Source: Candidatus Calescibacterium sp.
GTDB taxonomy: Bacteria > Calescibacteriota > Calescibacteriia > Calescibacteriales > Calescibacteriaceae
DNA: 12,294 nt
NCBI GenBank assembly: GCA_032249135.1
Contig: JAVVGL010000039.1
Coordinates: 1-12,294 of the forward strand
Direction: 5' to 3'
Position numbers: made by a program. Shown here piece after piece: positions 9,001 to 12,294 of the stretch; position 1 is the first letter of the stretch; each line of letters begins with the position of its first letter.

Positions 9001-12000
9001 AGAAGAAAGAGTTAATTTTTCAAGGTCAGAACTTGAGGCAAAAATAGATAAATTCAAATCAGAACTTGAGGCTAAAATAGAAAATGTTAGAGTAGAACTG
9101 GAAAAAGTGAAAGCAGAACTTGATGCGAAGATAGAAAAAGTTAGAGTAGAACTTGAAGCAAAGATAGAGAAAGTTGGAGCAGAATTAGATAAAGTCAAAT
9201 CTGAGCTTGATGAAAAGATAGAGAAAGTAAGAGCTGAACTTCTGAGTGAGATAGAGAAAGTTAGAGCAGAAGTAGAAAGATTGAAAATTGAGATTGACGC
9301 AAAAATAGATAAAGTAAAGGCAGACCTTGAATCTCAGATACGAAAGTTTGAATCTCAAATACAAAAGAGTGATATGAAACTTAATTTTCTTATCATTTTG
9401 ACTATTATTGCTATTGCTCTTATGAACCCAGTTGTAGCTGAAATCATAAAATCACTCCTGAAACTCTAATCAATATGAAAAACGAAAGAGAAAATAAAAA
9501 AGAAAGAGAAAATAAAATGAAAAAAATCAGAAAAAAATTCCCATACTCATTTCCCAAGTTTTTAACTTTTCTTGTTTTAGTAAGTCTGAGCTTCATATTA
9601 CAGTTCTCATTACAGTTTTCAATTTTCCTATCAAAAGCGTTGGCAGAAGAAATAAAAAATCAAGAGGAAGAAGAATGGAGAAAAAACCTTATAATCTCAA
9701 ATATACTTCAAGCTCCTTTTGGAATACTTGGTTTAGAGTATCATAGAGGATTATCAAGGAACATATCAATAGGTGGAAGCTTTACATATATTTCTCTTGA
9801 ATTTTTCAGAGGTTTCAGAGTTGGTCCAGATTTAGGATTATTTCCCTTCGGAAAAGCACCAGAAGGTTTTAATCTGCTTTTGTCTCCCGGGTTCCTTTCA
9901 GGAGATGTTGGAATTGAAAAAGAATTCACTCTTTTGATAATAAAAATCAAAGCGGAAGCAGAAATTGGTACTTTGAAAGGTATAAGTTTTCCGGTACTTT
10001 TAAGATACAACTGGATATTTGGTAAAAGTGGATTGGGCTTTGCACTGTCGGCAGGTGCAGGACTTCATTTTCTTGCTCTTACATTTGAAAGACCTATCGG
10101 AGAAATTAAAGTTTTAGGGATAATAAAAATTTCAGGAAAGGCAAAAGTTCCAATTCCCTTACCACCTTTACCAATTTTCAATTTGAGTTTGGGTTTAGGG
10201 TTTTAAGTTTGTTAATTGCTTAAAATTTCCCTCTTTTAAAATCAACTTCAGGTTACAATCAATATGCCCACCGAAAAATCTTCTGATTTGATCATATGCT
10301 TCAAAGAGATACTGAATAAAGAAATCATGAGATGAAAGGAATCTTTTTATTTCATCTGGATTATGAAAGGAATATATCGCTTCCAATTGGCTAGTTTCAC
10401 TTATTTTTCTGATAGATACAGGATTTTCATTTATTGGTTCATTTATTGTTCATTTATTGGTGGATTTTTTTATTTCTTTATTTTTCATTATTTCATTATT
10501 ATTTTTAGCTTTTATTTTCATATCACTATTGGCTCCTTGAACTCTCCATATACTTTTTTCAAAGCTTTTGTTGTTTCTCCAATGGTTGCTCCATTTTCAA
10601 GTGCTTCAATCAAATAAGGCATGACATTTTCTCCTTTTTCTGCTGCTCGTGAAATATTGTCAAGTAGCTTTTGAATTTTTCTCATATCTCTTTTAGATTT
10701 GAATTCTTGAAGCTTTTTTGCTTTTTCTACTGCCTCACGAGGTCTGAATATCTCAAACTTGTGTTCCGATGCACCATCTTCTTCCCTAAATATATTAACT
10801 CCGATTATTTTTTTCTTTCCTTGCTCAATAAGAACTTGCTGTTTATAAGCTTCTGAAAGTATGATTGATTGAATAAATCCATCTTTTATCGCCTTCACCA
10901 TACCTCCGTAGTCTTGAACTCTTTTCATTTCTGCCCTTATTTTCTCTTCCATCTCATCTGTGAGTTTTTCTATAAAGAATGATCCTCCGAGTGGATCTGC
11001 TACTTCTGGTATATCGGTCTCAAAAGCTAATATCTGCTGAATTCTCAAAGCTATTTTTGCGGAGTGTTCTGTTGGTATTGAGTAAGCTTCATCATAAGCT
11101 TCTGTGAATATAGATTGTCCACCCCCTAAAACTGTTGCAAGAGCCCCTAATGTGACTCGTGCTATGTTAAGCAAAGGTTCAGCTCGTGTTAGTGATGCTC
11201 CCCCGCATGCGACTGCAAATTTCATCGCCATATTCTTTTCATCTTTTACTCCGAGCTCCCTTGTGATGTGAGCCCATAGCCTCCTTGCAGCTCTATATTT
11301 TGCTACCTCTTCAAAAAGATTGTGATATGTGCAGAAGAAGAACGTGACTCTTTTTATAAATGAATCGGGATCAAGACCTCGGGATAGAACTTCATTTACA
11401 TAGACTTTTGCGTTCTCAAATGCAAATGCTACCTCCTGATAAGCTGTTGCTCCTGCTTCCCTTATGTGATACCCACAAACTGATATCGGATTAAATTTTG
11501 GAACATACTTTGTGCAGAATTCAATAACATCACAAGCAAGTTTTACAGAAGGCTCTACCGGATATATCCATGTGCCACGAGCTATTATTTCTTTTAGTAT
11601 ATCGTTCTGCAATGTTCCCGTAAGTTTCTCAAAAGGTATTCCTCTCTTTTTTGCAACTATAAGATAAAGAGCCATAATCTGTGGAGCAGTTCCATTTATT
11701 GTAAATGAAACGGAAATTTTGTCTATCGGGATACCATCAAAAATCTCCATCATATCTTCTACTGTATCCACTGCAACTCCGACTTTTCCAACCTCTGGTA
11801 ATGCAACTTCTTCGTCTGAATCATAGCCCATCTGTGTTGGAAGATCAAAAGCCACTGAAAGCCCAGTATTCCCCTGTTTCAGGAGAAATTTAAATCTTTC
11901 ATTTGTTTCTTTTGCCGTTCCAAATCCTGCATATTGTCTCATTGTCCAAAGCTTATCTTTATACATAGTTCTGTATGGCCCCCTCGTGAAAGGAAACTCT

Positions 12001-12294
12001 CCTGGATCTCCGAGTTTTTCTTTATAATACCGATTTATATCTCCCAAATCATCCGGCGTATAAAAAATTTTGTAGTTATATAGTTTGTAGTCTGAATTTG
12101 AATCGTTCCATCCGTTCTGTGTTTCTTTTTCTTTTGAATTCTCTTTTCGCATATCACAGAGATTTTATTATTTTCTTCGCTCAAAATTGCAATTTCTATA
12201 AAAATCAAGTTTTCGGAAGAAAATTTTCAAAAAATTGACAAAAAAAAAAATTAAAATTTTAAGAGTAAATATAAAAAAAGGAGTGAAAGAAAAT

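Follow-up and report, generated by a model that had tools for sequence, protein, structure and literature searches.

A candidate two-piece ethylmalonyl-CoA mutase and a variant ethylmalonyl-CoA pathway gene set in Candidatus Calescibacterium

Introduction

The pathway through ethylmalonyl-CoA (EMC pathway) is known from operons such as the Streptomyces emc operon, given as ccr-ecm-mml-mch-mcd in the accessible part of PMC4606968. Our reference for canonical ethylmalonyl-CoA mutase (Ecm/MeaA) was locus L223, which lies near ccr and mcd and whose product shares 73% identity with the Ruegeria sp. TM1040 entry 'protein meaA'. Two-subunit mutases acting on related substrates have also been described. 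The accessible text of PMC5719088 presents MatB/MatQ and ActD, of matlystatin and actinonin biosynthesis, as two-subunit mutases encoded with Ccr and an epimerase, with a proposed conversion of alkylmalonyl-CoA to alkylsuccinyl-CoA, and the available portion of PMC8360864 presents IaaGH of Aromatoleum aromaticum as a two-gene benzylmalonyl-/phenylsuccinyl-CoA mutase. Here we describe a mutase gene, g01825, in a window of 12,294 nucleotides (the whole stretch of DNA analysed) from a Candidatus Calescibacterium genome, G000 (assembly completeness 87%), which we compared with six relatives in a family sample of seven genomes.

Results and Discussion

An intact mutase subunit with an altered pocket

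The window gene is intact and conserved and encodes the large subunit, a substrate-binding TIM barrel, of a B12 acyl-CoA mutase built from two pieces (Table 1). In a profile search it scored 641.7 bits against TIGR00641 (cut-off 303.8); it has no B12-binding domain and does not match TIGR00640. Its predicted model (pLDDT 88.4) has 4R3U as top fold match (TM 0.90), and the TIM-barrel fold together with His244, Glu370 and Gln197 places it among the AdoCbl acyl-CoA mutase large subunits. Orthologs 81-93% identical occur in five of the six relatives, as the first-pass annotation had claimed. The sixth relative is G003, whose syntenic contig stops just ahead of the locus, so that the missing ortholog looks like an assembly gap and a true loss is unsupported. 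Purifying selection is indicated by dN/dS values of 0.02-0.05 in three of five ortholog pairs, the other two being saturated, and comparison of neighbourhoods across the five relatives revealed no neighbour conserved throughout the family. Part of the window stretch is contained in 23 RNA runs, with a share of at most 0.34, and one RNA-library contig covers almost all of g01825, although such contigs are not proof of transcription.

Table 1. Positions of the mutase subunits, g01825 motifs and EMC genes (window coordinates, or contig:positions elsewhere in G000; residue equivalents follow 1REQ)
Feature	Position	Strand	Remarks
Large subunit of two-subunit AdoCbl acyl-CoA mutase, g01825	10518..12152	-	544 aa, TIGR00641
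RQYAG	11925..11939	-	Tyr74 = Tyr89 of 1REQ, carboxylate side
ARGTW	11568..11582	-	Arg192 = Arg207, kept; Trp in place of Tyr210
SVCGYH	11466..11483	-	Tyr228/His229 = Tyr243/His244, kept; Cys226 at Ser241
FAVACGG	11199..11219	-	Ala313 at His328, Ala315 at Gln330
FTEAYDEA	11085..11108	-	Glu351 at Asn366; Glu355 = Glu370, kept
MCM paralog, large subunit	C4:108453-110156		Tyr/HAQTSG/HTNS, intact MCM pocket
Phe-type large subunit without Arg207	C4:102088-103782		48% identical to g01825
B12-binding small subunit, g01183	C14:19537-19947		Sole one in G000
Ccr	C30:2630-3838
Epimerase	C25:20459-20830
Mcd	C7:76208-77389
MchA	C15:51355-51927
MchB	C37:9508-10014
Mcl	C1:201289-202272
Carboxyltransferase for propionyl-CoA	C23:10220-11680
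MeaB	C5:49738-50748

As had been noticed earlier, G000 has three mutase large subunits, g01825 being the one with RQYAG, FAVACGG and FTEAYDEA. When we mapped its residues onto 1REQ, anchoring position 89 by the Y89F entry 5REQ, we found that the residues which methylmalonyl-CoA mutase (MCM) uses for its carboxylate clamp and its radical are kept, while Ala, Ala and Glu stand at His328, Gln330 and Asn366, three residues that a methylmalonyl-CoA mutase would possess. Among the three large subunits, only g01825 combines a kept clamp with loss of His328 and Asn366; it is 56% identical to the MCM paralog. Position 89 is Tyr in g01825, Phe in ICM-type enzymes and Ile in 4R3U, and with Tyr74 and Arg192 g01825 falls outside the isobutyryl-CoA and 2-hydroxyisobutyryl-CoA mutases, which have Phe or Ile at 89 and no Arg207. 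The Cys at Ser241 is common to g01825 and canonical Ecm (NVCSYH). Work by Erb in 2008 reportedly dealt with the role of replacing His328 and Asn366 in Ecm. A 3-hydroxybutyryl-CoA dehydrogenase-like gene adjoins the small subunit (305.9 bits in a profile scan, cut-off 319).

EMC genes with neither isocitrate lyase nor canonical Ecm found

The claim of an EMC gene set without isocitrate lyase (ICL) held throughout the family. Ccr (over its cut-off), Mcd (one copy in two pieces), Mcl, MchA and MchB occur in all seven genomes, and ICL in none of the seven, the control being matched in 8 of 14. Canonical Ecm was likewise not found, in line with the proposal, the best identity to a canonical query being at most 39% in each of the seven. 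G000 itself has Ccr, epimerase, Mcd, Mch, Mcl and MCM, its seven EMC genes being scattered with no single operon. In agreement with the first-pass annotation, we found a single PF03328 protein, a malyl-CoA lyase, and neither a second CitE-like thioesterase nor a separate malate synthase in G000, which also encodes three 4HBT-family proteins. Its two 2-oxoacid:ferredoxin oxidoreductases are a possible alternative entry for acetyl-CoA.

That Mch is split over two single-hotdog genes, also claimed earlier, is well supported. The top PDB matches of both MchA and MchB are double-hotdog Mch structures (8HGN, 4E3E and that of Haloarcula). MchB has the dyad seen in M. extorquens Mch (Asn226/His231), which 19 of 19 MchB rows share without change, and MchA has Tyr there; the dyad and a Ser/Arg carboxylate site across the double hotdog mark the pair as a predicted mesaconyl-CoA hydratase. 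The predicted MchA-MchB complex scored 0.88 (best control 0.00), and a natural fusion of the two exists (P0130). Among PDB entries, Mcd matches P. denitrificans MCD 6ES9 best (394 bits; next entry 306 bits), and Mcd keeps Ser248, Arg252, Ala285, Phe287, Thr418, Arg421 and Glu535, with His/Cys instead of Arg376/Glu380. Mcl best matches the malyl-CoA lyases 5UGR and 4L9Y, with citramalyl-type lyases far behind.

These enzymes might instead degrade imported C5-dicarboxylates such as methylsuccinate and mesaconate, with Ccr otherwise used, no EMC flux and an unrelated mutase. On a Paracoccus plasmid, the MaoC-ACAD-MaoC cassette is accompanied by a TRAP transporter, PrpD, a CoA transferase and a lyase; several metagenome loci show the cassette with no mutase nearby, and a C4-CoA methylsuccinate route has been published. 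We nevertheless regard this as quite improbable, since the Mcd, Ccr and Mcl of G000 are nearer to EMC-operon than to catabolic copies (Mcd 59-62% versus 46%, Mcl 49-52% versus 43%), the C2-methyl pocket found in the C1-CoA enzyme is present in the Mcd, and no ICL was found in the family, though relatives are reported as aerobic oxidisers of fatty acids. Compared with alphaproteobacterial and Streptomyces copies, Ccr (59-66% versus 44-49%) and Mcd (59-62% versus 41-47%) are also much closer to the operon copies.

Proposed role of g01825

Since the flanking steps are present in all seven genomes and canonical Ecm was found in none, some mutase must link Ccr and epimerase to Mcd. Mainly by elimination, this mutase is probably g01825 together with the small subunit g01183. 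We infer this pairing, each EMC activity and the flux in G000 from the genes, residues and co-occurrences observed. Crotonyl-CoA would pass through Ccr, epimerase and the g01825-g01183 mutase to Mcd, whose product would be taken by an MchA/MchB heterodimer and Mcl to glyoxylate and propionyl-CoA; the latter would reach succinyl-CoA by the carboxyltransferase and the His/Asn-type MCM paralog. In the mutase, the adenosyl radical would take a hydrogen from the ethyl CH2 and the thioester carbonyl would shift 1,2, with the carboxylate presumably held by Tyr74 and Arg192; the change of His328 to Ala may free space for the extra methyl, like Gly in the canonical enzyme. The loss of Gln330 and the Glu at Asn366, unlike canonical Ecm, count against an Ecm role, as do the scattered EMC genes, the neighbourhood that differs among relatives, His/Cys at Arg376/Glu380 of Mcd and the negative searches for a second CitE-like thioesterase and a malate synthase.

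Alternatively, g01825 could be functionally one of the catabolic His-less mutases and act on some other succinyl- or malonyl-CoA with a substituent; a promiscuous MCM paralog, or a gene missing from the assemblies, would then carry out the Ecm step. The signature had been put forward as new; the motifs are indeed present in g01825, but CGG/FTxAYDEA is not specific to the EMC pathway and its first Glu varies (9 Glu, 1 Gln and 1 Ala in 11 close homologs). Our scan, with a pattern that misses most operon-type sequences, returned at least 119 matches, 106 of the GVVCGG type among the matches listed, and we therefore discarded the CGG motif as an EMC marker. Most His-less mutases among the matches listed lie in IclR-ECH-mutL-mutS-CaiB-MeaB operons without ccr. 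ECH was present in 67 of the 80 long loci and ccr above 37% identity in none of the 80, bearing out the earlier remark that related CGG mutases stand apart from ccr. All-column trees, moreover, place other His-less types (P0030, L009) nearest to g01825, rather than the operon enzymes described below, and IaaGH offers, by its published description as far as accessible, a two-subunit precedent for benzylmalonyl-CoA. We nonetheless consider this reading unlikely. The catabolic cassette has Gly328, Ala243 (SIAGAH) and ECH/CaiB partners, whereas g01825 has Ala328 and keeps Tyr243, and close orthologs of that cassette's ECH (28-36%) or CaiB (23-28%) were not found in G000. A missing gene would also require an Ecm overlooked in all seven assemblies, and MCMs are about a thousand-fold slower on ethylmalonyl-CoA, which speaks against the paralog.

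The Myxococcota operon and the ancestry of g01825

We independently reproduced the earlier claim of an EMC operon in Myxococcota (the phylum of G041), where 15 of the 20 ccr loci have a His-less two-subunit mutase directly upstream of ccr, in the order mchA-mcd-mchB-(mcl)-mutL-mutS-(epimerase)-ccr; mchA-mcd-mchB are upstream in 12 of the 15, mcl occurs in 7 and the epimerase in 6. Among published genomes with a full match of at least 69%, Ccr exceeded its cut-off in 13 of 13 (23 of 301 overall). ICL is nearly excluded: 1 of the 15 operon genomes has it, compared with 199 of the 285 others, although kin are not independent. Canonical Ecm was absent from the five operon genomes searched exhaustively, at most four candidates per genome having been scored elsewhere in the 301-genome search. 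This operon mutase is very likely a non-canonical Ecm.

That g01825 is the same enzyme, as had been assumed, could not be established. The two share Ala328, but g01825 is 47-50% identical to the operon mutases, no closer than to its MCM paralog (45-50%) or the GVVCGG group (47-52%), and the operon mutases have lost Tyr243 (SIAS-H). The best G000 match of 11 of 12 operon mutases is g01825, with margins of only 5-38 bits of about 480 over the MCM paralog and one of the 12 reversed, so we rejected best BLAST match as proof of orthology. No g01825-type mutase stands beside ccr, mcd or mch in G000, in the five relatives or in 80 metagenome loci. A clade of g01825 and the operon mutases was recovered in none of nine free trees, and AU tests did not reject it (p 0.12 on the full set of columns, 0.20-0.46 once the pocket columns were left out).

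The grouping of g01825 with its own family's MCM, noted earlier, stood when pocket columns were removed (SH-aLRT 92; 70-93 in smaller IQ-TREE runs, which took in 34 of 47 alignment rows) and failed with all columns, where g01825 joins the His-less clade. Together with the kept Tyr89, Arg207 and His244, the former result would suit a second, broad-specificity MCM descended from the family's own. We judge such an enzyme highly improbable, given that His328, Gln330 and Asn366 are all replaced, in a change fixed under purifying selection, that the all-column AU test rejects the grouping (p 0.029), and that G000 already has a standard MCM. A sliding window over residues 81-140 gives a hint of extra likeness to the family MCM (0.78-0.81 versus 0.59-0.69), which composition may explain, as four of the eight private shared residues are Lys. 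A threefold origin of Ecm, namely the fused enzyme, the Myxococcota His-less enzyme and a Calescibacterium MCM duplicate with a convergent pocket, seems doubtful to us; if true, a deep-branching hot-spring lineage would have an entirely thermophilic EMC pathway that fixes CO2, with one B12 subunit serving three mutases.

Implications

The EMC build of G000 is a variant of a known pathway, probably with a differently built mutase. Screens seek fused Ecm and double-hotdog Mch, so that genomes with the two-gene build come out as 'near complete', as Myxococcota MAGs are called in PMC10576062, in whose supplements KEGG numbers were not found. EMC routes with a two-piece mutase have thus likely been missed in genome surveys. 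If our reading is correct, the pathway reaches part of the Myxococcota and a deep hot-spring lineage, and a substrate is assigned for the first time to the large, uncharacterised His-less mutase family. The mchA of operon locus L192 shares 99% identity with a protein labelled Vulgatibacter incomptus, which suggests that a cultured organism is available for tests. In synthetic CO2-fixation cycles, heat-adapted versions of Ccr, mutase, Mcd, Mch and Mcl would make valuable components.

Comparison with known systems

Like canonical Ecm, g01825 would fill the same reaction and pathway slot, as judged from sequence, and it keeps Tyr89, Arg207, His244, Glu370, Tyr243 and the Cys at 241 and loses His328 and Asn366. 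Canonical Ecm, however, is a single fused polypeptide (about 660 aa) that ends in a B12-binding domain at its C-terminus, whereas g01825 is split (544 aa), its small subunit lying on another contig. The canonical pocket is GVQVNS/QLPAWNEA (Gly328, Gln330, Pro366), and a canonical enzyme would be at least 57% identical to MeaA-type proteins; g01825 has AVACGG/FTEAYDEA (Ala328, Ala330, Glu366), is 38-39% identical and is distant in trees. Counterparts of its FAVACGG are AACVCGG in the operon type, FGVVCGG in the catabolic type and YGVQVNS in canonical Ecm. With methylmalonyl-CoA mutase (1REQ, 2XIJ and the split archaeal/Firmicute type) g01825 shares the fold (TM 0.88), the clamp and radical residues and, for split subunits, 50-56% identity, and differs at His328, Gln330, Asn366, His364 and Tyr210, all replaced.

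A two-subunit mutase beside Ccr, which we did see in Myxococcota, has a precedent in MatB/MatQ and ActD; these, likened to g01825 by their description in the accessible text, belong to secondary metabolism, act on a C8 substrate, measure 481 aa and come without Mcd, Mch or Mcl. IaaGH, likened on a similarly partial description, is also a two-gene mutase for a substituted malonyl-/succinyl-CoA, but is catabolic and handles an aromatic substituent (PMC8360864). The notion of a second build of the pathway stands as far as the non-canonical set is concerned, but the accessible description of Streptomyces emc genes, grouped like those of Myxococcota in one EMC operon, already includes, as in G000, a single-hotdog Mch (171 aa) and a short Mcd (about 400 aa); unlike in G000, its Ecm is the fused, canonical form, and Mch comes from a single gene of the TMNHHPLH type, with no A/B pair. 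Finally, against the M. extorquens double-hotdog Mch (8HGN), MchA corresponds to the N-half (Ser79, Arg142) and MchB to the C-half, with the Asn226/His231 dyad and Tyr248/Gly249, the difference being that in G000 the enzyme is encoded by two genes.

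Gene and surroundings of the window mutase

The mutase large subunit encoded in the window, from a Candidatus Calescibacterium genome of 2.10 Mb (34% GC, 87% complete), has no B12-binding domain by family profile search. Its AlphaFold model (pLDDT 88.4) matches 4R3U, the large subunit of 2-hydroxyisobutyryl-CoA mutase (TM 0.90), as well as MCMs, and its closest named relative is the mutase of Ca. Calescibacterium nevadense (L101, 93%). We obtained the same ortholog figures as the first-pass annotation, 81-93% identity in five of six family genomes. In the sixth (G003) the syntenic contig stops about 110 bases past the upstream neighbour, and since the downstream neighbour is missing too, the absence looks like an assembly gap. 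The dN/dS ratios were 0.047, 0.022 and 0.052 in three pairs, with two further pairs saturated. The surrounding genes (RHS protein, coiled-coil protein, 243-aa ORF) are unrelated to the mutase, and no family-wide conserved neighbour was found. The RHS protein and the 474-aa ORF look like a polymorphic-toxin and partner pair, and the segment skipped in four runs indicates that the repeat number of the coiled-coil gene varies among strains.

Coordinates of the window features and of other loci discussed in the text
Feature	Location	Strand	Remarks
474-aa ORF	window 131-1555	-	after RHS gene; matches no family
RHS protein, 2224 aa	window 1556-8230	-	YD/RHS repeats; RHS core TIGR03696; weak C-terminal VWA7_N match (E 1.7e-5, below cut-off)
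Coiled-coil protein	window 8795-9469	+	weak CCDC90-like match; 21/33-base tandem repeats
Segment of coiled-coil gene	window 9040-9074		33 bases skipped in contigs of four runs
Mutase large subunit, 544 aa	window 10518-12152	-	TIGR00641 over cut-off
Region of Calescibacterium small subunit	L038:4446-8882 (C14)		small subunit between 2-oxoacid:ferredoxin oxidoreductase alpha/beta pair and 3-hydroxybutyryl-CoA dehydrogenase-like gene
Mcd of G001	C23:44703-46032		two pieces: frameshift or assembly error
Operon mutL of L202	L202:11319-13083		two pieces: frameshift or assembly error
GVVCGG mutase	L046:9086-10693
Locus of fused Ecm-like mutase (G329)	L395:3537-6575		mutase directly after double-hotdog Mch, near mcd
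Locus of fused Ecm-like mutase (G323)	L396:1825-10913		as L395; mcl too
mchA-mcd-mchB-mcl	L294:746-5190
mchA-mcd-mchB-mcl	L295:3691-8165
Paracoccus plasmid cluster	L404:3915-9630		NZ_CP115767.1; TRAP transporter-PrpD-MaoC-ACAD-MaoC-CoA transferase-lyase

An altered active-site pocket

When aligned to 1REQ (offset +15, anchored on the Y89F entry), the window mutase retains Tyr89, Gln197, Arg207, Tyr243, His244 and Glu370, and carries the replacements His328 to Ala, Gln330 to Ala, Asn366 to Glu, Ser241 to Cys, Tyr210 to Trp and His364 to Phe. Among 11 close homologs, position 366 is Glu in nine, Gln in one and Ala in one. His328 and Asn366 are said, after Erb et al. in 2008, to determine pocket size. 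Our canonical ethylmalonyl-CoA mutase (Ecm) reference, L223, lies near ccr and mcd and is 73% identical to a 'protein meaA'; its pocket has Gly328, Gln330, Pro366, Cys241 and Tyr243, so that it has Cys241 and Tyr243 in common with the window mutase but differs at 328, 330 and 366. The paralogs in the same genome are one Tyr/His/Asn MCM-type and one Phe-type without Arg207. One small subunit was found per genome in all seven family genomes, and thus the three large subunits would share a single partner. On C5, meaB and an enoyl-CoA hydratase-like gene are divergently oriented. Elsewhere, one 3.1-Mb genome (G012; e.g. L009, L399) holds 26 large-subunit matches, including another type lacking His328.

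Genes of the ethylmalonyl-CoA (EMC) pathway and a two-gene Mch

The earlier claim of an EMC gene set without isocitrate lyase (ICL) or canonical Ecm held in the searches of the family genomes. Ccr (TIGR01751 above cut-off), Mcd (one copy split in two) and Mcl (best matches 5UGR and 4L9Y) occur in 7/7 genomes and an epimerase above cut-off in the Calescibacterium genome, while ICL was found in 0/7 (positive control in 8/14) and a canonical Ecm query matched at 39% identity or less in all seven. The Calescibacterium Mcd, whose best PDB match is 6ES9, retains Ser248, Arg252, Ala285, Phe287, Thr418, Arg421 and Glu535 of the specificity residues listed in the available part of PMC5798300; it has His/Cys at Arg376/Glu380 and misses a 170-residue extension. 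MeaB, three carboxyltransferase subunits and two 2-oxoacid:ferredoxin oxidoreductases are also present. Neither a second CitE-like protein nor a malate synthase was found, so the malyl-CoA-to-malate step has no assigned gene; the family genomes are 82-87% complete. In excerpts of PMC4791363, Calescamantes are characterised as heterotrophic aerobes that have beta-oxidation; neither 'ethylmalonyl' nor 'glyoxylate' occurs there.

The encoding of Mch by two single-hotdog genes, as first annotated, is well supported: MchA and MchB both match the Mch structures 8HGN and 4E3E best. In M. extorquens Mch (PMC10164722, excerpt) a dyad of Asn226/His231 stands together with Tyr248/Gly249; MchB has Asn53/His58 and Tyr77/Gly78 at these positions, and the dyad is unchanged in 19/19 MchB rows. 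In MchA, Tyr replaces the dyad His and the equivalents of N-half Ser79/Arg142 are retained. A natural fusion, A then B, exists (P0130). The predicted MchA-MchB complex scored 0.88 against 0.00 for the best control, on a scale whose mark is met by 116/157 solved complexes and 2/215 mismatched pairs, with at least 99% contact agreement between runs and partner pLDDT of at least 90; this pass may be owed to likeness to solved double hotdogs. The Arg of position 142 is kept in MchB as well, as is, in the Calescibacterium genome, the Ser of position 79, so MchB could function as a homodimer and the heterodimer need not be obligate.

The Myxococcota operon and the probable role of the window mutase

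The phylum of the Anaeromyxobacter sp. genome G041 (locus L066), which we take to be Myxococcota, was sampled as 301 genomes, 23 of them with Ccr above cut-off. Twenty of the 24 matching ccr loci were examined, leaving out G241 (an unpublished genome), G249, G334 and G062. The operon described in the first-pass annotation was recovered as mutL-mutS-(epi)-ccr in 15/20, with mchA-mcd-mchB upstream in 12 and the other three interrupted by the contig start; seven contain mcl, six the epimerase, and L195 all eight genes. The remaining loci comprise four with a more distant Ccr (47-53%) and no operon, and one uninformative. The operon mutase reads RQYAG / SIAS-H / AACVCGG / FTAAYDEA. Ccr occurs in 13/13 genomes with a mutase match of at least 69% (14/14 with G241). 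ICL is found in 1/15 operon genomes versus 199/285 others, counts that include related, hence not independent, genomes of unstated completeness. With all candidates scored in five operon genomes, only MCM-, ICM-, HCM- and operon-type mutases were found and no canonical Ecm. Of 80 metagenome loci retrieved through MchB, six have the operon mutase downstream; four of these reach ccr, two with epimerase. P0178, named Vulgatibacter incomptus at its source, is 99.4% identical to L192 mchA. Flanked by genes making ethylmalonyl-CoA and consuming methylsuccinyl-CoA, the operon mutase is very likely an Ecm.

Two further arrangements were seen. In the same phylum, L395 and L396 carry a fused Ecm-like mutase of 633 aa that is 47-49% identical to L223 and has another pocket motif, and their genomes have no Ccr match at E 1e-100. 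In L294 and L295, MchB is 59% identical to the Calescibacterium protein, closer than Myxococcota copies; upstream lies a 386-aa zinc-dehydrogenase-fold protein that cannot be recognised as a Ccr, and the 17-kb locus holds no mutase.

Calescibacterium Ccr, Mcd and Mcl are 59-66, 59-62 and 49-52% identical to operon copies, versus 44-49, 41-47 and 39-43% to alphaproteobacterial, Streptomyces or catabolic ones. The window mutase breaks that pattern, with 47-50% to operon mutases and 47-52% to the GVVCGG group; it is the best Calescibacterium match of 11/12 operon mutases, by a margin of just 5-38 bits. All-column trees place it inside the clade lacking His328 (FastTree, 243 rows, support 99; SH-aLRT 99.8), and an AU test rejects placing it with its own MCM (p 0.029). 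With pocket columns removed it joins the family's MCM (SH-aLRT 92 under LG+C20, 70-93 in further runs), reproducing the earlier caveat, and AU rejects no topology (p 0.20-0.60). Its placement may thus reflect common descent, convergence or a composition artefact. The assignment comes from elimination and operon analogy, by which the window mutase is probably an ethylmalonyl-CoA mutase: not a canonical Ecm, yet most likely working like one. The earlier observation is confirmed and its interpretation partly supported: EMC genes and operon analogy favour it, whereas the modest identity to operon mutases and the column-dependent placement do not.

The signature without His328 is broad: at least 119 matches listed in a genome scan include 106 GVVCGG, four window-type and two operon-like. 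The main group sits in IclR-ECH-mutL-mutS-CaiB-MeaB cassettes, with Ccr in 0/4 genomes tested. No close cassette partners were found in the Calescibacterium genome and Tyr243 is retained in the window mutase, pointing to a substrate of smaller size. The widespread, uncharacterised GVVCGG mutase is found in records from Halomonas, Bradyrhizobium, Marinobacter, Acidimicrobiia and Nitrospinota (L045-L163; also e.g. L065, L214), after carboxylase-like genes in L122 and before CoA-ligase subunits in L066.

Comparison with known systems

Searches of the open-access literature, subscription papers and bioRxiv supplements aside, yielded no two-subunit Ecm in acetate assimilation and no description of the Myxococcota operon or a Calescibacterium EMC pathway; in excerpts, ccr-containing EMC pathways of Myxococcota MAGs are called 'near complete' (PMC10576062) and the pathway is mentioned for Binatota (PMC8262859). 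Precedents exist for Mch and Mcd: the Streptomyces emc operon has a single-hotdog Mch (171 aa) and a short Mcd (L402; PMC4606968, in part), and one-domain homologs of haloarchaeal Mch appear in the available text of PMC5592240. The MaoC-ACAD-MaoC cassette occurs in a catabolic cluster too, that of L404, which is possibly a C1-CoA (beta-methylmalyl) route of C5-dicarboxylate breakdown, unlike the C4-CoA route in the published text available. Precedents for the mutase, by description, are MatB/MatQ and ActD, two-subunit mutases beside Ccr and epimerase proposed for hexylmalonyl-CoA (PMC5719088, excerpt), and IaaGH, which acts on benzylmalonyl-CoA (PMC8360864, excerpt).
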